The notes under the pieces are model-generated. The model was not told the origin of the DNA, did no database searches, and saw nothing but the letters and a program-made list of their open reading frames with translations. From Candidatus Yanofskybacteria bacterium (lineage in GTDB: Bacteria > Patescibacteriota > Minisyncoccia > 2-02-FULL-40-12 > IGHO2-12-FULL-4), in assembly GCA_016185525.1 (NCBI GenBank), contig JACPNK010000002.1, positions 11,616 through 75,615 of the forward strand: DNA of 64,000 nt, given 5' to 3'. Below are positions 2,817 to 58,503 of this stretch, one piece after another. Position 1 is the stretch's first letter; each line of letters begins with the position of its first letter. A program made the position numbers and the translations under genes.

Positions 2817-4286
2817 ATGCAAAAAGAAAAAACAAAAATTACGCCACAGCATTTCTATAAATTTTTCCAGTGTCCGCATTGGATTTGGTACGATCTCTAT
2901 GAAGACCAGCAGAAGAAGAAAGCTACACCGCCTTTGATGCAGATGATTTACGAAGACGGTCTAAAACACGAGCGGGAAGTTATCAAGTCAAAAAAATTTG
3001 AGGAAGTTGATACGGCTATGTTTAAGGATTTGGATGAAGCTTTTTTGGCTACGGCGGAACTGATGAAAAAAGGAAAAAATATTTATCACGGCGTTTTGAT
3101 GGACGAACACTGGGTGGGAATTCCCGATCTTTTGGAGGTTCGGCCGTTAAGCGAATTGGGCGATAAAAAATTAAAGTCTCATTTTGGCGATTATTATTAT
3201 GTGGTTTATGACATTAAAAACAGCAAAGACATCAAAGATGAACATAAATTCCAACTGGTTTTTTACAGTCTGATGTTGGAAAGGATTCAGGGAATTAGGC
3301 CGCGCGAAGCTTATATAATTAACAGCCAAGGCGAAGAAAAGTCTTTTGTTATTGACGAGTTTTTAGACTACTTCCACCTTACTCTGGGAAACATTGAGAA
3401 GATTTTAGAGGGCGAAAAACCGCCGCCATTTTTGAAGAGCGGTTGCAAGCGGACACCTTGGTATAGTCTTTGTTTGTCGGAGACAGAAAGTTGCCGCGAC
3501 GTTTCTCTGATTTATCGTTTAAGCCAGATGGACCAGCGCCAGCTCTATGATATCGGGATTAAAACCATAGATGATTTTGCCCATGCTGATTTGGAGGTTT
3601 TGCGTAGCCAGCTGATTAGCTGGAATTTTGATAAGTTGGTGCGTTTCCATAACCAAGCCCAGTCGTTGGTTAAAAATGAGTCCCTGATCTTAAAAAAGCC
3701 GGTTTTTCCGGAAGTGGAGACGGAAATATATTTTGATATTGAAAGCGACCCCACGCAGGACATTGACTATATGCTTGGCCTTTTAATTAAGCGGAAAAAT
3801 ATTAATGGCGAGCCGGAGTTCAAGTATTTCTTGGCAAATAATAAGTCTGAAGAAGAAAAAATTTGGCGGGAGTTTACCAAGTTTATTGAAGATTTGGATA
3901 ATTTTGTGATTTATCACTATGCCTTTTATGAAAAACAAACCTTTGACCGTCTAGCTTTGAGATATGGCGTTAGCGACAAAGCTTCAGAAAAATTTAAAAA
4001 TAATTCTATTGACTTGCATCGGGTGGTGGTTGACTCCGTCGTCCTGCCTTTGTATTTTTACAGCCTGAAAGATGTGGCCAGATATGTCGGTTTTCAGTGG
4101 CAAGCTGAAGATGCCGGCGGAGCGGAGTCGGTGGTTTGGTACAACCAGTGGAAAGAGACCGGCGATAAAAAGATTCTCCAGAAAATTTTGGATTACAACA
4201 AAGACGATGTTGTGGCGACCATGGTTGTCAAAGAGTGGTTGGAAAAGCAGAAACCTAAAATGCAAAGAGAAATATTGCCGGAATAG
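2817..4286 (+). CDS. RecB-family nuclease, TM0106-type (PD-(D/E)xK N-domain plus RNase-H-like C-domain)
   Basis: GIPDLLEV...YVVYDIKNSK fits a PD-(D/E)xK arrangement. A Cys cluster (CKRTPWYSLC...C) and a C-terminal IYFDIESDP...DYMLGL block resemble an RNase-H-like exonuclease fold. The 489-aa length matches the TM0106 family. Confidence 0.6.
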   Translation: MQKEKTKITPQHFYKFFQCPHWIWYDLYEDQQKKKATPPLMQMIYEDGLKHEREVIKSKKFEEVDTAMFKDLDEAFLATAELMKKGKNIYHGVLMDEHWVGIPDLLEVRPLSELGDKKLKSHFGDYYYVVYDIKNSKDIKDEHKFQLVFYSLMLERIQGIRPREAYIINSQGEEKSFVIDEFLDYFHLTLGNIEKILEGEKPPPFLKSGCKRTPWYSLCLSETESCRDVSLIYRLSQMDQRQLYDIGIKTIDDFAHADLEVLRSQLISWNFDKLVRFHNQAQSLVKNESLILKKPVFPEVETEIYFDIESDPTQDIDYMLGLLIKRKNINGEPEFKYFLANNKSEEEKIWREFTKFIEDLDNFVIYHYAFYEKQTFDRLALRYGVSDKASEKFKNNSIDLHRVVVDSVVLPLYFYSLKDVARYVGFQWQAEDAGGAESVVWYNQWKETGDKKILQKILDYNKDDVVATMVVKEWLEKQKPKMQREILPE

Positions 4287-4382: not shown

Positions 4383-4673
4383 CTAGTCTCTGGTAGTGTG
4401 GCGTGGTTTTCTTGCTACGACAGCAGCTAGTTCCACATTAGCAGTCTTCAACTTTTTTTCAGTTTCATTAAGTTTTTCAAGAAGTTTTTGTATAAGTTGG
4501 GCTGCTTTTGACAAGACTCCGATTGTTTCTTGTGCATATTTCTGGAGTTCAGGCTTTGTGTTGTTTGTTATAGCCGACAGACTTTTTTGAGTAAGTGCCA
4601 TAACTTCTTGGAGTGCAACCATTAATTCTTTTTCAAATTCTAATTCTGCGTCTTTTGATGTTTGTAAAGACAT
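4383..4673 (-). CDS. small alpha-helical protein (96 aa), cassette 3 of 3
   Basis: Strong SD (aaggagg) and a predicted all-helical sequence. Palindrome site 1 lies about 95 nt upstream. Confidence 0.5.
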   Translation of the reverse strand: MSLQTSKDAELEFEKELMVALQEVMALTQKSLSAITNNTKPELQKYAQETIGVLSKAAQLIQKLLEKLNETEKKLKTANVELAAVVARKPRHTTRD

Positions 4674-4765
4674 TTTCTCCTCCTTTTTTTAAAGAGCTCC
4701 AAGATAAGGGAGCTACAAGCTAATATACATAATAGGCTGGTTGTGTCAACAGGTGGGTAACCGTC

Positions 4766-14480: not shown

Positions 14481-14718
14481 CGGTCTTCCAAATATTGCTT
14501 TTTCCGGACGCTCGTCCCGCTCCAGCGGCGGGACTCGCTCTTTGTGAGATGTGGATTCTGTCCAGCTTAAGAAAGCTGTCCAGACCACGCCATTGAACTT
14601 ACAGCTTATCCGTCCCTATCGGTCCGAATGGGCTGTAAGATTCAATGGCTAGCAACCTGCCTGTCGGCAGACAGGTCCACAACTCACAGAGCCTACAAAA
14701 GCAATATTTGGAAGACCG
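14481..14718. mobile_element. MITE-like element with perfect 22-bp terminal inverted repeats (cggtcttccaaatattgcttttt / aaaagcaatatttggaagaccg)
   Basis: The TIRs can be read directly from the sequence. The 195-nt interior is hairpin-rich and GC-rich and has no ORF. A 25-nt fragment of the same end recurs at 25455-25479. Confidence 0.45.
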
Positions 14719-14780
14719 TAAACTAACAATCCGCCCGTAGCCCTGCCTGCCGGCAGGCAGGTCAGTTGGCGAAGATTAGT

Positions 14781-15030: not shown

Positions 15031-15105
15031 CCGCCCGTAGCTCAGCTGGTAGAGCAACTCCCTTTTAAGGAGATGGTCGTTGGTTCGACTCCAACCGGGC
15101 GGACA
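15031..15105 (+). tRNA. tRNA-Lys (anticodon TTT), CCA not encoded
   Basis: Cloverleaf folded by hand. Acceptor ccgcccg/cgggcgg, D-stem gctc/gagc, anticodon loop cTTTTaa, T-arm gttgg-ttcgact-ccaac, discriminator A. Confidence 0.8.
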
Positions 15106-22354: not shown

Positions 22355-23086
22355 TCATTTTTTGCTAAGACTGTCCAATCTTACTGATTTTCTAATGTTG
22401 TATCTGCCAATTCCGGTTCTGATAAGTTTTTCCAGATATCCGCCGGTCTTTAAGACTTTGCCTAAGTCATGGGCAAGTGAGCGAATGTATGTGCCGGAGG
22501 AAACTTTAGTTTCAATCTCTAAATAGGGCCACTTATATTTTAAAATTTTGATTGAGTAAATTTTTACTTTTCTTGGTTTTAATTCGGGTGTAATTCCGCG
22601 GCGGGCAAGTTCGTAGGCTTTCCTGCCTTTAATCTTGACGGCGGAAAACAAGGGGGGAGTTTGTATAATTTCTCCTGTAAATTTTTTCAAAACTTCTCTG
22701 ACTTTAGGCAAATCAGCTATACCACCTACCTTCGACCCTCGACTTGTCGCTCGGGAATTTTCAGGTAGGTGTATAGCTGATTTGCCACCAGAAATCCCTT
22801 GAGATTCTATTTGTTTTATGTGTCCGGTTAAATCTCCGGTGTCAGATTCCGCTCCGAGTTTAATTGTTGCTTTATAAGTTTTGTCCATCTTCAAAAATTG
22901 TCCCAATTTCTTAGTGTATTCCCGTCCTACGGCCACAATCAAAACCCCCTCGGCAAAAGGATCAAGCGTGCCAGCATGGCCGACTCTTTGTTCTCCGCTT
23001 AACTTTCTAATCTGATTAACGATGTCATGCGAAGTCGGCCCAGCCGGTTTGTATATGTTGTAGATACCGCATTTTAACTTTTTCAT
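22355..23086 (-). CDS. truB: tRNA pseudouridine(55) synthase
   Basis: GHAGTLDP catalytic motif. The track's N-terminal extension MPLATFTAL... is encoded by repeat A1, so the start is placed at the MKKLKCG methionine. Confidence 0.75.
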   Translation of the reverse strand: MKKLKCGIYNIYKPAGPTSHDIVNQIRKLSGEQRVGHAGTLDPFAEGVLIVAVGREYTKKLGQFLKMDKTYKATIKLGAESDTGDLTGHIKQIESQGISGGKSAIHLPENSRATSRGSKVGGIADLPKVREVLKKFTGEIIQTPPLFSAVKIKGRKAYELARRGITPELKPRKVKIYSIKILKYKWPYLEIETKVSSGTYIRSLAHDLGKVLKTGGYLEKLIRTGIGRYNIRKSVRLDSLSKK

Positions 23087-23101
23087 TGACACAAAAAACG
23101 T

Positions 23102-23260
23102 AGTCATTATGCCTCTGAGGGCAGTAAAAGTTGCGAGGGGCACGGTTTGTCAACGACCAGGCACTTTCGCAGAAAGTGCCTGGCTCTTGACAAGACGAGC
23201 AACTTTTTCTGATGACAAAACCTCGCTGGGGTTTTGGAAGTCCCGAAGAGGTATAATGAC
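23102..23260 (+). repeat. structured repeat family A, copy 1
   Basis: Aligns with the copies at 41492-41669 and 53719-53884. It has a conserved aaagttgcgag...gtttgtcaacgacc / ctcttgacaag.cgagcaacttt core and covarying stems. Orientation is given relative to the other copies. Confidence 0.6.
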
Positions 23261-23266
23261 GAAGTT

Positions 23267-25261
23267 TTAAAACAGTTTCTTCAGCTCTTTCATCTGCTCC
23301 CTAATCACCATTGCTTTTTCAAATTCCAGATTTTTAATTGCTTTGCTAATCTCTTTTTGTAGTTCTGCCAATTTGTTTTTATTTGAAACTGAATCTGAAG
23401 ATTTTGACAAGTCGTATCCAGCATAAACCATTTTAGGTGTTGCTGAAGCGGGCAAGTCGCTTTTTGTAATGTTTTTGTAAATTGTGGTCGGGGTGATCTT
23501 GTTTTTAAAATTATATTTTTCCTGTATTTTCCGGCGGCGAAACGTCTCTTTAGTTGCGGCTTCCATGGATTTGGTTTTTTTATCAGCATACATCAAAATA
23601 TGACCGTCAACGTTTCTGGCCGCTCTCCCCATAGTTTGAATTAAGGTGGTGGCGTTGCGCAGAAATCCTTCTTTGTCTGCGTCTAAAATCGCTATCAAGG
23701 AAACTTCGGGCAAATCCAGACCCTCTCTTAGCAAATTAACACCGACAATGACGTCATAGTTGCCCAAACGCAGGTCGTGTATAATTTCTAACCGTTTTAA
23801 GGTTTTAATTTCAGAGTGTATATAGTTAACTTTAATTTTTTCGTCAGCCAAATATTCCGCTAAATCTTCCGCCATTCTTTTGGTTAAGGTGGTGACTAAG
23901 ACCCTTTGTTTTTTGGCTACCCTTTTTCTTATTTCTGAAACGAGATGCGGTATCTGGCCTTCGGTCGGGAAGACCTCAATCGTCGGATCAAGCAGACCGG
24001 TGGGTCTGACCAACTGTTCGGCCAGACCCTTCTTGCCCGATTTTTTTAGCTCAAAAGTCTTTGGGGTCGCGGAAACATAAATTACCTGATTTATTCTTTC
24101 AGAGAATTCGTCAAATCTTAGAGGCCTGTTGTCAATTGCTGAAGGCAGTCTGAAGCCGTGTTCTATAAGCGTTGATTTTCTGGAATGGTCGCCATGAAAC
24201 ATGCCTCTGACTTGAGGAATGGTAATATGCGACTCGTCAATTATGGTCAAAAAATCTTTTTTTGTTTTGAAAAAATCAAGCATCGTGTAAGGCGGGTCTC
24301 CGGGATTTCTGAAATCAAGGTGGCAAGAGTAATTTTCAATGCCGTGGCAGTAGCCGGTCTGCTTAATCATTTCCAAGTCCAGTTCCGTGCGCTCTTTGAG
24401 ACGCCAGGCTTCTTCGCTTCGGCCGTCTTTTTTCAGTTTTTTAATATGTTTATCCAATTCCGTCTTAATGTTGCTTAAAGCTATAGAGAGTTTGTTTTGG
24501 GGAGCAATCCAGTATTTTGCCGGGAAGATCTTTGTTTCAACAACTCTGTGATATTTCAGATCGCCAAAGTCCAAAGCTTCTAGGTCAATATTTTCGGCCA
24601 CGCCCATTCTTTTTATCTTATTATTCAAAATTTTTATTTTTATAACACGATCTCCGGTGGCCGGTACAATTTCAAATTCTTCACTGGTTTTTCTGAACTT
24701 TCCTCTTTTAAGTTCTATGTCCTGGGCATACTGAAGACGGATTAAATTTTTGTGCAGTTCTGCGCCGGTCATTTTTTGGCCTTCAGAAACTTCCAAACTC
24801 ATTTTTTTGTATTCTTCCGGCGAGCCCAGGTTGTAGATGCAAGAAACGGAAGCGACGACGATAACATCATCTCTGGTCAGCAAAGCTTGGGTCGCGGCGT
24901 GGCGGAGCTTGTCAATTTCTTCATTGATGCGGGAGTCTTTTTCTATATAGGTTTTGGTGTGGGGTATGTAAGCCTCCGGCTGATAATAGTCGTAGTAACT
25001 TACAAAATAGTGAACTGAATTTTGAGGAAAGAATTCTTTAAATTCTTGGTAAAGCTGGGCGGCCAAGGTTTTATTGGGAGAAATAACAAGAGTCGGTTTT
25101 TTGATTTCGGCAATGACGTTGGCAATGGTAAAAGTTTTGCCCGAGCCGGTTACGCCCAAAAGTGTCTGGTGTTTTAAACCGGATTTTAACCCAGCCACAA
25201 GCTTCTCAACTGCTTGAGGCTGGTCGCCGGTCGGTTTAAATTTTGATGTTAATTTGAACAT
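23267..25261 (-). CDS. uvrB: excinuclease ABC subunit B
   Basis: Helicase motifs, a UvrB interaction domain and a C-terminal UVR coiled coil. The start is trimmed to MFKLTSKFKPTGDQP because the 23 codons upstream are repeat-derived. Confidence 0.9.
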   Translation of the reverse strand: MFKLTSKFKPTGDQPQAVEKLVAGLKSGLKHQTLLGVTGSGKTFTIANVIAEIKKPTLVISPNKTLAAQLYQEFKEFFPQNSVHYFVSYYDYYQPEAYIPHTKTYIEKDSRINEEIDKLRHAATQALLTRDDVIVVASVSCIYNLGSPEEYKKMSLEVSEGQKMTGAELHKNLIRLQYAQDIELKRGKFRKTSEEFEIVPATGDRVIKIKILNNKIKRMGVAENIDLEALDFGDLKYHRVVETKIFPAKYWIAPQNKLSIALSNIKTELDKHIKKLKKDGRSEEAWRLKERTELDLEMIKQTGYCHGIENYSCHLDFRNPGDPPYTMLDFFKTKKDFLTIIDESHITIPQVRGMFHGDHSRKSTLIEHGFRLPSAIDNRPLRFDEFSERINQVIYVSATPKTFELKKSGKKGLAEQLVRPTGLLDPTIEVFPTEGQIPHLVSEIRKRVAKKQRVLVTTLTKRMAEDLAEYLADEKIKVNYIHSEIKTLKRLEIIHDLRLGNYDVIVGVNLLREGLDLPEVSLIAILDADKEGFLRNATTLIQTMGRAARNVDGHILMYADKKTKSMEAATKETFRRRKIQEKYNFKNKITPTTIYKNITKSDLPASATPKMVYAGYDLSKSSDSVSNKNKLAELQKEISKAIKNLEFEKAMVIREQMKELKKLF

Positions 25262-25270
25262 GGCAAAAGT

Positions 25271-25432
25271 AAGCTTCGCAGATACAGCCTTTTCGGTACT
25301 TTCGCTGATTCCAGCGATCAGCTCACTCACTGTTCGCTCGGGTTGTGGAAGGAGTCGAAGAAATATTATACTCCTTCCAACCTAGCCAACCGCGAGCTCA
25401 CAGTGACCTCAAAGGCTGTATCTGCTACGCTC
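25271..25432 (+). repeat. structured repeat family B, copy 1
   Basis: Terminal dyad cgcagatacagcctttt / aaaggctgtatctgc. Three internal hairpins covary with the copies at 55001 and 31454. Confidence 0.6.
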
Positions 25433-25454
25433 TCTAGTCACACTAACAAGAAAC

Positions 25455-25479
25455 GAGCGTCCGGAAAAAGCAATATTTG
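25455..25479 (+). repeat. solo 25-nt fragment matching the end of the MITE-like element at 14481-14718
   Basis: gagcgtccggaaaaagcaatatttg is the reverse complement of 14488-14512. Confidence 0.5.
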
Positions 25480-25529
25480 CCAGACTAACCGCATCTCTAC
25501 TTTAAAAAAGTATTATTTTATGAAACAAT

Positions 25530-30630: not shown

Positions 30631-31445
30631 TTCTAAAGGGTTTAATTTTATTTGCATCAGCGCAGATTTTGGGGCTTTTAACGGCCCAGCGTTATTTGTC
30701 TGCTTTGCAGTCTGCCAATTTGTCTCTTCCCGGTTTGAAGTTTTCTTTCTGGGATATTTTTGTTTCTTCCGCGATACTTTTGATTTTTATTTTTTTTGTT
30801 TTCAGGCAAGGCAGGCCAAGCCGGATTTTTTTTAAAATTTTTCTTTGGCTGGTTATTTTTAGCGGTTCGCAGATAGTTTTTTCTGTTTTTCTTTCACCGA
30901 CAGTTGCCTTGATTGTGTTTGTTTTGTTTTTGATCTTAGTTTTAGCGATACCTAGAGTTGCGATTCAAAATTTGGCTGTGATTTTAGGCATTACTGGCAT
31001 TAGTTCTATGCTGGGCCTTAGCCTCACACCCATGACGGCGGTTATACTTTTAGCTTTGTTTTCCGTTTATGACATTATTGCCGTGTATTTTACCGGACAT
31101 ATGATAAAAATGGCCGAGAATATGATCCAGTCAAAGGCAATTTTTGGGCTAATCATTCCAAACAAGTTTTCAGATTTTAAAGAAAAAACTGGGAAGATGA
31201 GGCTGGGAGAACAATTCATGATCTTGGGAAGCGGGGATGTGGCCCTGCCTTTAATTTTAGTTTCCTCACTTGTCAGGGTTTCTTTGTCGCAGGCTTGGCT
31301 AGTGGCGGGTTTTGCTGTTGTTGGTTTTGTCGTTACCCATCTTTTATTTGCAAATCAAAAAGAAAGAAGGCCGATGGCCGCTTTGCCGCCCATTGCGGCA
31401 ATGTCAATTTTAGGATATTTGATTACCAACTTTTTTATATGGTGA
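30627..31445 (+). CDS. presenilin/signal-peptide-peptidase-like intramembrane aspartyl protease (A22 family-like)
   Basis: Polytopic membrane protein with LFSVYDIIAVYFTGHMIKMAE (YD motif followed by HM...AE as in archaeal PSH), MILGSGDVALPL (GxGD) and AALPPIA (PAL-like) in the canonical order. Confidence 0.6.
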   Translation: MILKGLILFASAQILGLLTAQRYLSALQSANLSLPGLKFSFWDIFVSSAILLIFIFFVFRQGRPSRIFFKIFLWLVIFSGSQIVFSVFLSPTVALIVFVLFLILVLAIPRVAIQNLAVILGITGISSMLGLSLTPMTAVILLALFSVYDIIAVYFTGHMIKMAENMIQSKAIFGLIIPNKFSDFKEKTGKMRLGEQFMILGSGDVALPLILVSSLVRVSLSQAWLVAGFAVVGFVVTHLLFANQKERRPMAALPPIAAMSILGYLITNFFIW

Positions 31446-31453
31446 CTTACCAA

Positions 31454-31613
31454 AGCACAGCAGATACAGTCTTTGAGGTCGCTGTGAGCCTGCGGTTTGC
31501 TTGGTTGGCTGGAGTATAATTATTCTGTAACTCCAGCCAAAACCCAGACGAACAGCGAGTGAGTCTGCCGCTGGAGCAGACGAAGGTACCGAAAAGACTG
31601 TATCCGCGAAGCT
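31454..31613 (-). repeat. structured repeat family B, copy 3 (inverted orientation)
   Basis: Its reverse complement aligns along the whole length with the copies at 55001 and 25271. Confidence 0.6.
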
Positions 31614-31630
31614 TTGCTGGGACAGCTTTT

Positions 31631-41478: not shown

Positions 41479-41491
41479 TCAACAATAATAA

Positions 41492-41669
41492 AATTAGAGG
41501 TAGTGTCTCTGAGGGCAGTAAAAGTTGCGAGGGGCATGGTTTGTCAACGACCCCTCCCCAGTTTTTCAAAGTAAAACTGGGGAGGGGCTCTTGACAAGAC
41601 GAGCAACTTTTTCTGATGAAGAATCCTCGCTGGGGATTCTGAAGTCCCGAAGAGATGCTACCTCTAATT
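41492..41669 (+). repeat. structured repeat family A, copy 2
   Basis: Perfect 12-bp outer dyad aattagaggtag / ctacctctaatt. Same core as copies 1 and 3. Confidence 0.6.
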
Positions 41670-41689
41670 TTATTAAAGTGATTCGGAAT

Positions 41690-42349
41690 ATGGTAAACAG
41701 AGTTATCAAAAAATTAGTTTTATCTGATTTTTTATTGAACTCCGCCTTTGGCCTTTTAGCGCCGATTTTTGCTATTTTTATTTTGAGAAATATAGAAGGC
41801 AGTACTTTGAGAGTAGTCGGTCTGGCCACGACTTTTTACTGGATTGCCAGAACCTTAACGACTGTTCCATTGTCAAGGTTTATGGACAGAACCGATGGCG
41901 AGCGCGATGAATTTTATTTTATTGTTGTCGGCTCGTTTATGATGTCCTCTATCCCGCTGTTCTTTTTACTGGCAAAAGTTCCTTGGCATATTTATCTCAT
42001 ACAATTTATCTCCGGGTTGTCGGCCTCAATGGCTGTGCCTTCCTGGCGTATTTTATTTACGGACCATCTGGACAAAGGGTCTACCGGCTACGAATGGTCT
42101 CTGGAAGATATAGCCATCGGAGTTTCGGTGGGCATCAGCGCTTATCTGGGGTCTTTGCTGGCGGATAAGTTCGGCTTTCATACAGTTTTTATATTTGTTT
42201 CTATGTTGGGTTATTTAGGCACGATGATTTTAATTCCCATCTCTCGTGATGCTAAAAATCTGGCTCAAATAAAAAAAGAACATCGTCTGGGGGCCATAAG
42301 GCTTAAACGAAAAAAAATATTGCCCCGCAAAGTTGATGGCATAAAATAA
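41690..42349 (+). CDS. 6-TM MFS-like membrane protein
   Basis: LSRFMDRTDGERDEF resembles MFS motif A. The start is set downstream of the repeat-derived N-terminal extension. Confidence 0.4.
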   Translation: MVNRVIKKLVLSDFLLNSAFGLLAPIFAIFILRNIEGSTLRVVGLATTFYWIARTLTTVPLSRFMDRTDGERDEFYFIVVGSFMMSSIPLFFLLAKVPWHIYLIQFISGLSASMAVPSWRILFTDHLDKGSTGYEWSLEDIAIGVSVGISAYLGSLLADKFGFHTVFIFVSMLGYLGTMILIPISRDAKNLAQIKKEHRLGAIRLKRKKILPRKVDGIK

Positions 42350-52078: not shown

Positions 52079-52933
52079 ATGTCTTGGCAAACCTTGGGTT
52101 TTCAGAAAAACAAGGAATTTTTTGAAAAAATTGTCCGAAATGGTGAGCTTGGCCACGCTTATTTATTTACAGGTCAAGAGATGATAGGCAAGAAAAGATT
52201 TGCTCTGGATCTGGCGGGTCTGGTCAATAGTTCTGGAATTGACTTTGAGAATGACCCAAATCTTTTGATTCTGGGTGGTGAAAATGGAATCTCCATTGAC
52301 CAAGTTAGAGATCTTAAAAAGTTTTTAAGTTTTAAGCCTTATAGCGGTAGTTACAAAATTGCTGTCATAAACGATTGCCATCTTATGTCCCAAGAGGCGG
52401 CTAATGCCCTTTTGAAGGTTTTGGAAGAGCCGGCTTCTCATTCTTTAATTATTCTAGTTACTTCAAATCCAAATTCTTTACTGCCGACAATTTATTCCCG
52501 TTGCGAAGAGATAAAGTTTGAGCCCCATATCCGCAGTCAACTACTTGGTCATTTAAAAGACATGGGACTAAGCCAGACTCAAGCTGAATTTTTGGCCGAT
52601 TTTTCCAATGGCCGTCCGGGACTAGCTTTCAGGTTAAAAGAAAAAAACAGCTTTAAAGAAATAAAAACAAAACTGGAGCAGTTTAATAAACTTTTAAAAT
52701 CAGATATAAATGAACGCTTTAATTTTGCGGAGAAAGCCTTACAGGAAAAAGAAGACCAAAACTTAAGCACGCTACTTTTGTACTGGATGTTTTATTTAAG
52801 GTCAGATTTGTCTAAGAGCTTGAAAATAAACCGAGGTAAAGTTTTAAAAAGCCTGCTGGAAGTGAATTATATTTTGTCCAAACCGCAATATAACCATAGG
52901 TTGGCTTTTGAAAATTTTTTATTGAGCTTGTAG
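52079..52933 (+). CDS. holB: DNA polymerase III delta' subunit-like AAA+ clamp-loader protein
   Basis: GHAYLFTGQEMIGKK P-loop-like block and SRC-type motifs (TSNPNSLLPTIYSRC). Confidence 0.65.
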   Translation: MSWQTLGFQKNKEFFEKIVRNGELGHAYLFTGQEMIGKKRFALDLAGLVNSSGIDFENDPNLLILGGENGISIDQVRDLKKFLSFKPYSGSYKIAVINDCHLMSQEAANALLKVLEEPASHSLIILVTSNPNSLLPTIYSRCEEIKFEPHIRSQLLGHLKDMGLSQTQAEFLADFSNGRPGLAFRLKEKNSFKEIKTKLEQFNKLLKSDINERFNFAEKALQEKEDQNLSTLLLYWMFYLRSDLSKSLKINRGKVLKSLLEVNYILSKPQYNHRLAFENFLLSL

Positions 52934-53164
52934 TTGGCATATTGATTCTTCAGTATGCTCACTCCGCCAGCGTCTCCGTTCGCTCGCGACGTCGGCAAAT
53001 TTGAAATGAAGTTAGGAAAAATTATACTTCATTTCAACCATGCAATTTGCCTCCTCAGCGACTTCAGAACCAATATGCCAACTACAAGCTAAGTCTGGTG
53101 ACAGCGAGTTTTCGCTAGAAGAAAACGAGTATCCGTAAAAAACAACAATTACAAAGCAAAAACC

Positions 53165-53710: not shown

Positions 53711-53718
53711 ATTGTTGA

Positions 53719-53884
53719 GGGGTAGCACTTCTGAGGACGCTCAAAGTTGCGAGCAGCACGGTTTGTCAACGACCAGGCACTTTCTTAAAATCTTAGAAAG
53801 CGCCTGGCTCTTGACAAGGCGAGCAACTTTGCGCGATGAGAAAAACTCGCTGGGTTTTTCGAAGGTCCGAAGAGGTGCTACCCC
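53719..53884 (+). repeat. structured repeat family A, copy 3
   Basis: Outer dyad ggggtagcac / gtgctacccc. Same conserved core as the other copies. Confidence 0.6.
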
Positions 53885-53900
53885 GATACAACCAGAAGAA

Positions 53901-54983
53901 ATGTTTACGGTAATTATTTTCATAATTGTTCTCGGTATTTTGGTGCTGGTCCACGAGTTGGGCCATTTTGTGATGGCTAAAAGAGCGGGGATGAAGGTGG
54001 AGGAATTTGGCTTTGGCTTTCCGCCCAGAATTTTTGGTTTCAAAAAAGGGGAGACTGTTTATTCCCTGAATCTAATTCCTTTTGGTGGCTTTGTGAAAAT
54101 TTTTGGCGAAGATGGATCAGAAGAAGCATTGAGAAGTTCAAGAAGTTTTTCTTCCAAAAAGGCGGGCGTTAAGGCCGGAGTAATTGTTGCCGGTGTTACC
54201 ATGAATTTAATTCTGGCTTTTGTTTTGTTGTCCTTTGGTAATTTCTTGGGTTTAAGAGTTGGTTTGGCGGAAGGGAATACCAAGGCGTCAGATTTGAAAA
54301 TTCAAATCGTCCAAGTTGTTGCCAATAGTCCGGCTAAAGAAGCGGGATTGGAAATGCTGGATGAAATTGTTGGCTTGAGATTTGGCCAGAATATTTTAGA
54401 AATAAAAAATATTGACGAGGTTCAGAACTTTATAAACCAGAATAAGGGCAATAAAGTTTTCATTAAAATTAAGAGAGGCGGCGAGGTTTTAGAAAAAGAA
54501 GTTACTCCGCGCCTTGAGCCGCCACCCGAAGAAGGTGCTTTGGGAATCTCTATGGCTTTGACGGGAGTTATTAAATATCCTTGGTACGAGGCTGTCTACA
54601 GGGGCGGACAGCAGACTGGAATTTTGCTTATTAACACTGTTTACGGCTATGCCGGCATAATTAAAAATGTTTTTATAACCGGTTCACCGGGGGCTGAATT
54701 GTCCGGGCCCATAGGCATTGCTAAATTTACCGGCCAAGCGGCAAGAATCGGTTTTGCCTATCTGATCCAACTTACGGCAATCTTGTCAATCAACCTAGCG
54801 ATCTTAAATATTATCCCATTCCCGGCTTTAGATGGCGGAAGGTTGCTTTTTATAATCATAGAAAAACTAAAAGGCTCGCCTATTTCCAGAAAAGTGGAAA
54901 CCTTGGTCAATTCTGTCGGCTTTGCCCTTTTGATATTACTCATGATTTATGTTACAACAAAGGATGTAATAAGGTTTTTCTAA
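53901..54983 (+). CDS. rseP: RIP metalloprotease RseP (site-2 protease, M50)
   Basis: LVHELGHF HExxH in TM1, a PDZ domain and a C-terminal TM. The start is set at MFTVIIF because the track's N-terminal 63 codons are repeat-derived. Confidence 0.8.
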   Translation: MFTVIIFIIVLGILVLVHELGHFVMAKRAGMKVEEFGFGFPPRIFGFKKGETVYSLNLIPFGGFVKIFGEDGSEEALRSSRSFSSKKAGVKAGVIVAGVTMNLILAFVLLSFGNFLGLRVGLAEGNTKASDLKIQIVQVVANSPAKEAGLEMLDEIVGLRFGQNILEIKNIDEVQNFINQNKGNKVFIKIKRGGEVLEKEVTPRLEPPPEEGALGISMALTGVIKYPWYEAVYRGGQQTGILLINTVYGYAGIIKNVFITGSPGAELSGPIGIAKFTGQAARIGFAYLIQLTAILSINLAILNIIPFPALDGGRLLFIIIEKLKGSPISRKVETLVNSVGFALLILLMIYVTTKDVIRFF

Positions 54984-55000
54984 GTACTCGTTAAGTTCAA

Positions 55001-55162
55001 AAGCTTCGCAGATACAGCCTTTTCGGTACTTTCGCTGACTCCAGCGATCAGCTCACTCGCTGTTCGCCTGGGTTTTGTCTGGAGTTACAGAATAATTATA
55101 CTCCAGCCAACCAAGCAAACCGCAGGCTCACAGCGACCTCAAAGGCTGTATCTGCTGCGCTT
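55001..55162 (+). repeat. structured repeat family B, copy 2
   Basis: About 90% identical to the reverse complement of 31454-31613 and about 75% identical to 25271-25432. Confidence 0.6.
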
Positions 55163-55171
55163 TTTATATAA

Positions 55172-56413
55172 ATGCGTTTATCACAATTATTCACCCGCAC
55201 CGAAAAAGAGGCGCCAAAAGATGAGGCAAGCGTAAATGCTCAACTTTTGGAAAGAGCCGGTTTTGTTTACAAAAATAATTCTGGAATTTACACCTATCTG
55301 CCTTTGGGTTGGCGGGTGATAAATAAAATCACGGCGATTATAAGAGAAGAAATGAACGCGATCGGCGGACAGGAGATGTTTATGCCGGCTTTAGTAGACA
55401 AAAGGTATATGGACTCCACTGGCCGCTGGGATGTGGAGGTGGCTTTTGAAGCCAAGGGCAAAAAAGAAAACGAAGCAAGGTTTACTCTCGGCTGGACTCA
55501 CGAGGAGGTTATCACAGAAATTGCCTCTAAGTATATCAGCTCATACAAAGACTTGCCGTTCTCTTCTTATCAGATACAAACTAAATTCCGCAACGAGCCC
55601 CGAGCGAAATCCGGCCTTTTACGGGGCAGAGAATTTTTAATGAAAGACTTGTATAGTTTTCATGCCTCGGAAGAAGATTTTTTGAGATATTACGAAAAAG
55701 TCCGCGGCGCTTATCACAAAATTTTTGAAAGATGCGGCTTGAAATCTTTCTACACTTTAGCGGCAGGCGGAGACTTTACGGCAAGCAATACTCATGAGTT
55801 TCAGGTTTTGGCGCCGGTGGGTGAGGATACTATTTTTATCTGCTCTAAATGCGAGTATGCCGAAAATAAAGAGATTTCTTCTCTAGCTAACGGTGGTTTG
55901 TGCTTAAAATGCGGCGGCAAAGTCAGGGAAGAAAAGTCCGTTGAAGTCGGCAACATTTTTCCTTTAGGCACTAAATACACCGAAGCTTTAAATTTACAAT
56001 TTACGGATGAACGGGGGAATAAAGAATTTGTGGTCATGGGTTCATATGGCATTGGTCTGGGCAGACTGATGGGAACTGTTGCCGAAATTTATCATGACAA
56101 AAACGGATTAATCTGGCCGGAGTCAATTGCGCCTTATAAATTTATTTTAATAACTCTAGACCACACCAAAGAAGAAGGGGATAAGTTATATCAAAAACTT
56201 TTGGAACAAGGGGCTGAAGTTTTATACGACGACAGAGAAGACAAAACCGCTGGCGAGAAATTTGCCGATGCCGATTTGCTGGGCATACCGATCAGGCTTG
56301 TAATTAGCCCCAAAACGTTAAAAGAAAAAAGCGTAGAGATGAAGATGAGAGGAAAAAAGGTGACAGAATTAACCAAACTCAAAGAAGTTGAAGAAAAACT
56401 GGACTTAAGCTAG
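55172..56413 (+). CDS. proS: proline--tRNA ligase (short archaeal-type)
   Basis: Class II motifs, a Zn-binding C-terminal CSKCEYAEN...CLKCGG cluster and an anticodon-binding domain. Confidence 0.8.
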   Translation: MRLSQLFTRTEKEAPKDEASVNAQLLERAGFVYKNNSGIYTYLPLGWRVINKITAIIREEMNAIGGQEMFMPALVDKRYMDSTGRWDVEVAFEAKGKKENEARFTLGWTHEEVITEIASKYISSYKDLPFSSYQIQTKFRNEPRAKSGLLRGREFLMKDLYSFHASEEDFLRYYEKVRGAYHKIFERCGLKSFYTLAAGGDFTASNTHEFQVLAPVGEDTIFICSKCEYAENKEISSLANGGLCLKCGGKVREEKSVEVGNIFPLGTKYTEALNLQFTDERGNKEFVVMGSYGIGLGRLMGTVAEIYHDKNGLIWPESIAPYKFILITLDHTKEEGDKLYQKLLEQGAEVLYDDREDKTAGEKFADADLLGIPIRLVISPKTLKEKSVEMKMRGKKVTELTKLKEVEEKLDLS

Positions 56414-58018: not shown

Positions 58019-58060
58019 GCATAATTTCGGGATTTTGTTTAGAGTAACAAAAAAGCCCAA

Positions 58061-58447
58061 ATGACAAATGAACAAATGACAAATCAAATCCAAAGCTCAA
58101 ATGTCAAAAAATACGATTTGGAAGAAAGAACAGCAGTTTTGGGGCAAAACATAATCGATTTTGTAAGAACTTTATCTAAAAACTCAATTACTAATCCGCT
58201 TATTAGTCAAGTAGTTAGAGCTGGAACAAGCATCGGAGCAAACTACATGGAAGCAGACGCATCCGAATCAAAAAAAGATTTTCTACACAAAATTGGTATC
58301 TGCAAAAAAGAAAGCAAAGAAACGATGCACTGGCTAAGGATGATAGCGCATGCTATGCCTGAAAAACAAAACCAATGCAGGCAACTGTGGAAAGAAGCGC
58401 ATGAACTTTTATTGATATTTTCCAGTATTGCTAAAAGAAAGTATTAG
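58061..58447 (+). CDS. four-helix-bundle protein (23S rRNA intervening-sequence-type, TIGR02436-like)
   Basis: VVRAGTSIGANYMEADASESKKDFLHKIGICKKESKETMHWLRM matches the family signature. The gene is bracketed by imperfect inverted repeats rich in aatgacaaatga (58043-58075 and 58449-58496). Confidence 0.7.
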   Translation: MTNEQMTNQIQSSNVKKYDLEERTAVLGQNIIDFVRTLSKNSITNPLISQVVRAGTSIGANYMEADASESKKDFLHKIGICKKESKETMHWLRMIAHAMPEKQNQCRQLWKEAHELLLIFSSIAKRKY

Positions 58448-58503
58448 TTTGGATTTTGACATTGATTTGTCATTTGGATTTTGTCATTTGTCATTAAAAT
58501 TTT

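Follow-up and report, generated by a model that had tools for sequence, protein, structure and literature searches.

The window, that is, the whole 64,000-nucleotide stretch of Candidatus Yanofskybacteria DNA analysed here, contains eight hairpin elements, three of which belong to family A, three to family B, one to family C and one to family D. An earlier note had placed three copies of family A in this stretch in the same orientation, and inspection of the sequence confirmed each of them where it had been placed, all on the plus strand. The copies and their parts are given below; the ends of the elements are approximate and not defined to the base.

23094-23269, plus strand: family A copy 1, filling the uvrB/truB gap (23087-23266), antisense to both genes
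23094-23115 and 23248-23269: outer arms of copy 1
23116-23118 and 23245-23247: UGA/GAA tandem G-A of copy 1
23123-23210: long arm of copy 1, with the tip hairpin at 23157-23183
23216-23236: 3' hairpin of copy 1, loop TCGCTGG
41486-41675, plus strand: family A copy 2, in the gap between a subtilase-like gene (stop codon 41476-41478) and a membrane protein gene (ATG at 41690), sense to both
41486-41509 and 41652-41675: outer arms of copy 2
41517-41614: long arm of copy 2, with the tip at 41551-41587
41620-41640: 3' hairpin of copy 2
53712-53892, plus strand: family A copy 3, of junction type 2 (GCGCGAUGA), filling the frr/rseP gap (53711-53900), sense to both genes
53712-53731 and 53872-53892: outer arms of copy 3
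53739-53834: long arm of copy 3, with the tip at 53773-53807
53840-53860: 3' hairpin of copy 3

An nhmmer profile established from the three copies re-detected each of them at E-values of 1e-58 to 1e-61, and no fourth family A copy was found with this profile within the 64-kb window. The conserved core reported for the three copies was recovered at 92% identity. The element is real but longer than the ~160 nt originally claimed, as AT-rich pairs prolong the outer stem; the inverted-repeat arms of copy 2 reach 30 nt and are 87% complementary. The helices described as perfectly self-complementary were quoted correctly, and the stems of the 3' hairpins are indeed perfect, but there is a G-T pair in the outer stem of copy 1 and an A-C mismatch in the central hairpin of copy 3. 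The spurious extensions of open reading frames attributed to the copies are also real, and are located at 22355..23143 (minus strand), 41525..42349 (plus strand) and 53712..54983 (plus strand).

Beyond the window, one genome per species was scanned for an exact pattern, and this returned 16 loci, in three metagenome-assembled genomes (MAGs) only. One of these, a Candidatus Yanofskybacteria MAG, carries 11 family A copies across 10 loci, and the other two bear the label uncultured Saccharibacteria. In CAYZNJ01, which is labelled Saccharibacteria, UvrB and RseP are 84% and 75% identical, respectively, to the window proteins. The UvrB of the window itself is identical to a protein encoded on a 166-kb contig of a Yanofskybacteria MAG. 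A second pattern added nine metagenome contigs with family A, so that 29 copies from Yanofskybacteria MAGs and metagenomes, the window copies included, were available for analysis, 25 of them full-length. It can be observed that family A sits in tiny intergenic gaps and is present in multiple copies, with three in 64 kb and at least 11 in one MAG. No genuine match was obtained on searching phages, plasmids and viral contigs. As far as sampled, family A is confined to a genus-level clade of Candidatus Yanofskybacteria within the CPR/Patescibacteria, and the literature searched contained no account of repeats of this kind in CPR bacteria.

The same three-way junction fold is present in each of the three window copies. 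The outer stem is interrupted symmetrically by tandem G-A pairs (CUCU-GA-GGG / CCC-GA-AGAG, that is, UGA/GAA). The long arm is composed of AAAGUUGC...GCAACUUU together with UUGUCAA/UUGACAA, an asymmetric internal loop and a variable, swappable tip hairpin, and the 3' hairpin displays the loop CUCGCUGGG above a base that is again U-G-A/G-A-A. Compared with shuffled sequences, the folding energy of each window copy gave z values of -8 to -11 on both strands. Covariation was evaluated with an RNAalifold consensus on a MAFFT alignment of the 25 full copies. Here, 96.1% of the pair cells were standard pairs, compared with 82.2% for shuffled partners and 37-50% for slid partners; 31 of the 62 pairs were altered on both sides, in 222 cells, and not one of 500 shuffles matched any of the observed covariation measures. 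Most of the variation lies in three parts, namely the outer stem, tip and 3' hairpin, and three basal pairs of the long arm switch jointly (AG.A/U.CU to GC.C/G.GC). The compensatory changes proposed in the earlier note are thus borne out by the larger alignment, and on the strength of this covariation across 25 copies the fold of family A is real and maintained.

The two strands are not equivalent. The plus strand was more stable than the minus strand in all 25 full copies, with mean energies of -88.4 and -77.2 kcal/mol, respectively. Among variable pairs, G-U was found 42 times and A-C 18 times (p ~0.003, a value not corrected for the relatedness of the copies). Furthermore, the G-A motifs are purine-purine on the plus strand only, and the purine-rich non-canonical motifs of the core, namely the tandem G-A, the loop CUCGCUGGG and the junction GAUGA...GAAG, occur on this strand alone. 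Such differences between the strands suggest that the element is recognised as a folded single strand, of either DNA or RNA. Two further structures were considered and set aside. A K-turn at the 3' hairpin fits the type-1 copies (C-stem, GAU bulge, G-A and A-G), but the type-2 copies break the C-stem and covary with the long arm instead. A pseudoknot would join CUCGC in the loop to GCGAG in the long arm; these two segments hardly vary, and the single variant, in locus L019, is uncompensated.

Conservation is distributed very unevenly along the element. Mean identity over all pairs of copies is 92% in the core and 45% in the outer arms, and the core is near-invariant even where the flanking genes of the species compared have only 70-85% identity. 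The copies combine junction type, outer stem, tip and 3' hairpin in various ways. Between window copy 1 and the orthologous copy in locus L012, where the flanking genes are 82-85% identical, the outer arms are identical and the core blocks 97% identical, and the tip and the 3' hairpin have been replaced outright. The copies of family A are thus a recombining population in which variants of the outer stem, tip and 3' hairpin reassort. Moreover, one outer-stem type occurs at two loci, uvrB/truB in the window and the site after serS in L022, which implies that the arms belong to the moving unit. In L022, a family D copy in inverted orientation (about 1114-1322) is nested in the tip of family A. 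Another nested structure was observed in L038 (~4633-4707), where a hairpin of ~85 nt lies within the internal loop of family A with CGAG on both sides; these repeats may have arisen as a 4-nt target duplication when a further small element inserted.

The remaining hairpin elements of the window, and copies of a further family F found in relatives, are as follows.

25262-25450, minus strand: family B, in the ruvA/uvrB gap, upstream of uvrB; covariance model 46.3 bits, E 3e-9
54992-55180, minus strand: family B, in the rseP/proS gap; covariance model 54.8 bits, E 2e-11
31443-31623, plus strand: family B; covariance model 42.5 bits, E 3e-8
52925-53090, minus strand: family C, a long hairpin in the holB/frr gap
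14481-14718, minus strand: family D, ~240 nt, with 22-bp perfect outer arms
L036 1103-1274, L036 3295-3499, L020 1767-1931 and L038 2322-2474: family F

Family B is a repeat of ~185 nt built on the three-way-junction plan of family A, and its tip loop carries AGUAUAAU. The covariance model of family A matched all three family B copies over its full length, scoring 42-55 bits (E 1e-8 to 1e-11), and the orientation of the matches was the one that the G-A motifs had led to expect. In the alignment, the two families have in common the outer stem with UGAGG on its 5' side and CCGAA on its 3' side, followed by GA-UGA, a hairpin containing UCGCUGG, and GAA-AGU. The end of family C overlaps holB and provides its last codons (L-S-L) and stop codon. 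Family D, neighboured by a second hairpin (14655-14762) and a tRNA (15031-15103), is represented by at least 10 copies among the loci retrieved. Family F is rod-like, of ~170-200 nt, with the core UUCCGUCGAAUAUGGCCGAGC...GCGAGGUCCAUCUCGUAAGGAA and outer stems of 15-22 bp that are perfectly paired and different in each copy; it has no match in Rfam. Family A is one of several related hairpin families that share junctions and nest in each other. Three other features of the window should be mentioned. An apparent remnant of family D lies at ~25455-25490; inverted repeats of 21-29 nt (CAAATGACAAAT...) at 58045-58490 surround a segment of ~390 nt with a 128-aa open reading frame (58061-58447); and a 489-aa protein encoded at 2817-4286 on the plus strand has precomputed Pfam hits to a Cas4-type nuclease (PF01930) and RNase_H_2 (PF13482).

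The same gene junctions were then compared between the window and its relatives.

frr/rseP: 190 nt with family A copy 3 in the window; 5 nt in L026, L027 and L028, where RseP is 92% identical; overlapping genes in L029, where RseP is 77% identical; an open reading frame of ~105 aa with a terminator hairpin in L009 (1602-2055) and L031 (5565-6000)
uvrB/truB: 180 nt with family A copy 1 in the window; an orthologous family A copy in L012; in L038, family A whose outer arms differ and which contains a small nested hairpin; in L036, family F; in L037, an empty gap of 22 nt; in L039, another hairpin
rseP/proS: family B in the window; family A in L009
holB/frr: family C in the window; 12 nt in L027
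ruvA/uvrB: family B in the window; 27 nt in L039

Among close relatives, a given junction may thus contain family A or lack it; at shared junctions, independent insertion is not always separable from vertical descent. The outer arms of L038 and of the window differ at four positions per arm, with full compensation in three pairs and G-U wobbles on the plus strand in two. When filled and empty frr/rseP junctions were compared, no direct repeat indicative of a target-site duplication was observed. L003 was considered as an empty site for the copy in L025 and rejected, since it keeps ~9 nt of the 3' arm and is better explained as a slippage deletion between TTTG repeats. The same pair of loci had suggested that the outer stem is copied from the host flank. 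This was also rejected: the L025 arms are homologous to those of L019 and L020, the empty frr/rseP junction shares nothing with the arms of copy 3, and one arm type is found at two loci.

Regarding gene context, copy 1 is antisense to both uvrB and truB, which lie on the minus strand, and copies 2 and 3 have the same orientation as the genes beside them. At about 20 of 26 independent loci, both neighbours are on the strand opposite to family A. Different copies are flanked by unrelated genes (truB, the membrane protein gene and rseP in the window). The statement of the earlier note that all copies sit immediately 5' of genes is literally correct and yet uninformative, because the genome is compact. 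Few known genomes are as small or as tightly packed as those of CPR/Patescibacteria, in which genes are separated by gaps of 5-30 nt. No conserved promoter or consistent sigma-70-like site was found at the family A copies, the TTGACA hexamers of the long arm have no usable -10 box, and T-runs 3' of the outer stem are present in only about half of the copies; a promoter or terminator belonging to the element itself was rejected on these grounds. Moreover, copies 1 and 3 lie within groups of genes that form operons in relatives, which makes strong termination unlikely. The suggestion that the element is transcribed as a 5' leader did not survive this comparison, given the varying flanks, the predominance of antisense loci, the lack of a conserved promoter and the relatives without the element at the same junctions; the consistent sense orientation and functionally related genes typical of a riboswitch or leader were not observed. 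A bias towards one replication strand was rejected as well. GC skew is uniformly positive in the window, where all three copies lie on the G-rich (plus) strand, whereas in other genomes most copies are on the C-rich strand, antisense to neighbouring genes. This inconsistent orientation is a poor fit to a simple model in which single-stranded DNA of the lagging strand serves as the template.

Taken together, family A is best read as a non-autonomous mobile repeat of ~180-200 nt, devoid of open reading frames and inserted between genes, rather than as a regulatory RNA leader, and a probability of about 0.7 is assigned to this reading. It rests on the fact that the element is gene-less, multi-copy, located in gene gaps, polymorphic, and replaced by or nested with sister families; a conserved central module with arms that only need to pair points in the same direction. 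The conclusion of the earlier note, a structured RNA or recombination site rather than a simple MITE, therefore stands in part: the repeat family and its covarying helices are genuine, but the leader role fails, and so does covariation as the discriminating feature. Compensatory changes in the hairpin are common in REPINs too (PMC3116915), so that they do not count against mobile DNA.

REPINs are also the system closest in logic to family A, although family A is not a member of that family. As with REPINs, family A is short, ORF-less, extragenic and multi-copy per genome, it forms a long hairpin kept by compensatory changes, it combines conserved blocks with a region in which only pairing is needed, and it behaves like a population. 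The REPIN is symmetric, made of two inverted REPs, whereas family A folds asymmetrically into a three-way junction that includes a separate 3' hairpin; in family A it is the centre that is conserved and the terminal arms that are variable, and the host is a CPR bacterium rather than a proteobacterium. GTAG is found at the 5' foot in nine of the 25 full copies and is not conserved. No RAYT, HUH or Y1 protein appeared in a crude regex motif search of six-frame translations covering ~333 kb, nor did this screen reveal a transposase, a reverse transcriptase or any other partner gene. The exclusion from the REPINs is based on the asymmetric junction and the inconstant GTAG, alongside the lack of a RAYT in this very partial screen.

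Classical MITEs possess conserved terminal inverted repeats and target-site duplications. Family A shares with them that it is short, non-coding and insertion-polymorphic; its termini, by contrast, are its most variable part, and no target duplication was seen. The earlier note was consequently right that this is not a simple MITE of the classical type with terminal repeats and target duplication, but the element nevertheless behaves as mobile DNA. Structured MITE-like repeats include Correia/CREE, ERIC/IRU, pneumococcal BOX and RUP, and the Rickettsia palindromic elements. They are likewise 100-250 bp in length and intergenic, with stable predicted RNA or DNA folds and presence/absence polymorphism between strains, and BOX elements are modular mosaics, as is family A. 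What sets family A apart from them is a core that forms a conserved three-way junction common to at least two families. The ends of IS200/IS605 elements carry separate subterminal hairpins, and insertion takes place 3' of a fixed tetra- or pentanucleotide. Their non-coding derivatives (PATEs) resemble family A in having neither terminal inverted repeats nor target duplications, and a strand-specific single-strand fold is plausible. They differ in that the ends of family A pair with each other; TnpA and TnpB were not seen, and no fixed flanking motif is common to the three family A junctions compared.

Two alternatives accept the fold and assign it another role. The first is that family A comprises functional structured RNAs maintained by the host, either cis-acting (leader, processing or stability elements) or small RNA genes, and it is considered unlikely. 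The strong covariation, the excess of G-U over A-C on the plus strand, the purine-rich non-canonical motifs restricted to that strand and the sense orientation of copies 2 and 3 inside transcription units are all in its favour, and the 92% identity of the core across species is the main argument for a role beneficial to the host. It is weakened by the predominance of loci antisense to both neighbours, by unrelated flanking genes from copy to copy, by the lack of a conserved promoter and of an Rfam match, and by close relatives that are empty or harbour a different family at the same junction. Far less probable is a folded single-stranded recombination site used by a site-specific recombinase, of the type of integron attC or filamentous phage attP. 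Here, arms that conserve structure over sequence, the strand-specific bias of the fold and the occurrence of different elements at the same junctions agree with such a site, and integron attC in particular shares folded single-strand recognition and a variable terminal structure with family A. Family A is, in contrast, much longer than attC and has a conserved central core; its copies lie 12-18 kb apart with conserved housekeeping genes between them and form no cassette array, the boxes RYYYAAC/GTTRRRY are absent from the three window copies, and no integrase gene (intI) was seen nearby in the annotated loci.

A third alternative, equally improbable, is that the junction is a self-cleaving ribozyme, hammerhead-like or of a new class, within a retrozyme-like element that spreads via an RNA intermediate. 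In the hammerhead, the core nucleotides C3-U4-G5-A6-N7-G8-A9 and G12-A13-A14 flank stem II, and the A15.1-U16.1 pair together with a non-G nucleotide 17 defines the cleavage site beside stem I. Several features resemble the hammerhead (RF00008, RF00163 and relatives): CUGAUGA, a stem and GAA are arranged at a three-way junction in most copies (about 19 of 25 have the hammerhead-like core), the tandem G-A pairs of U-G-A/G-A-A are placed as in domain 2 of the hammerhead, and family B displays UGAG-stem-CGAAAG. Nevertheless, the requirements for the cleavage site and stem III are lacking. After GAA, family A continues with G-U-CCC, and depending on the register position 17 is G or 15.1/16.1 is not A-U, so that the A-U pair and the non-G cleavage nucleotide are absent in every register tried. 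The motif is also not conserved across subtypes, as five of the 25 copies have GCGAUGA (the type-2 copies) or Watson-Crick pairs in place of G-A (L002 and L010). Furthermore, the nucleotides corresponding to C3 and U4 pair with the 5' side of the long arm and change together with it (AG..CU to GC..GC, pairs 42/139 and 43/138), as in an ordinary helix. The search of Rfam suggested in the earlier note for a structured RNA gave no match: for family A, no Rfam family passes the gathering threshold, and the hammerhead, twister, hatchet, pistol and hairpin models give no score at E<10; permissive searches at E<10 or E<5, which covered families A to D, returned generic miRNA hairpins or nothing. A hammerhead or other ribozyme was rejected on these four counts, namely cleavage-site pairs that cannot be placed, a variable motif, C3/U4 covarying as a helix, and no ribozyme covariance model that scores.

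If family A is a mobile repeat, the plus-strand fold of single-stranded DNA or RNA would be recognised by the mobilising machinery, as is the case for REP/REPIN and IS200/IS605 ends, where a tyrosine HUH transposase works on folded single-stranded DNA. The conserved junction core would then act as the recognition module, and the arms would need only to pair. When transcribed within operons, family A would form a very stable RNA structure that is presumably tolerated; it may have acquired a secondary role as a processing or stability signal, rather than that of a dedicated 5' leader. A bolder and rather doubtful proposal is that the GA-rich junction common to families A and B (UGA/GAA, GAUGA with the UCGCUGG hairpin and GAAGU, and the outer stem) is the active module, either a new ribozyme or an enzyme handle, that drives a new mode of mobility. 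If so, CPR genomes would be host to a whole mobilome of replicating hairpins, which integrate at gene junctions and in the loops of one another.

Despite such compact genomes, the Yanofskybacteria clade tolerates several families of structured repeats of 100-250 nt. They bear directly on annotation, since family A causes false N-terminal extensions of truB, a membrane protein gene and rseP, and family C can replace the last codons and stop codon of a gene, as in holB. For the discovery of RNAs, it should be noted that strong covariation alone cannot distinguish a functional RNA from mobile hairpin DNA. Family A provides a tractable population of recombining hairpin replicators, and the partner that reads its junction could reveal a new mechanism of mobilisation.
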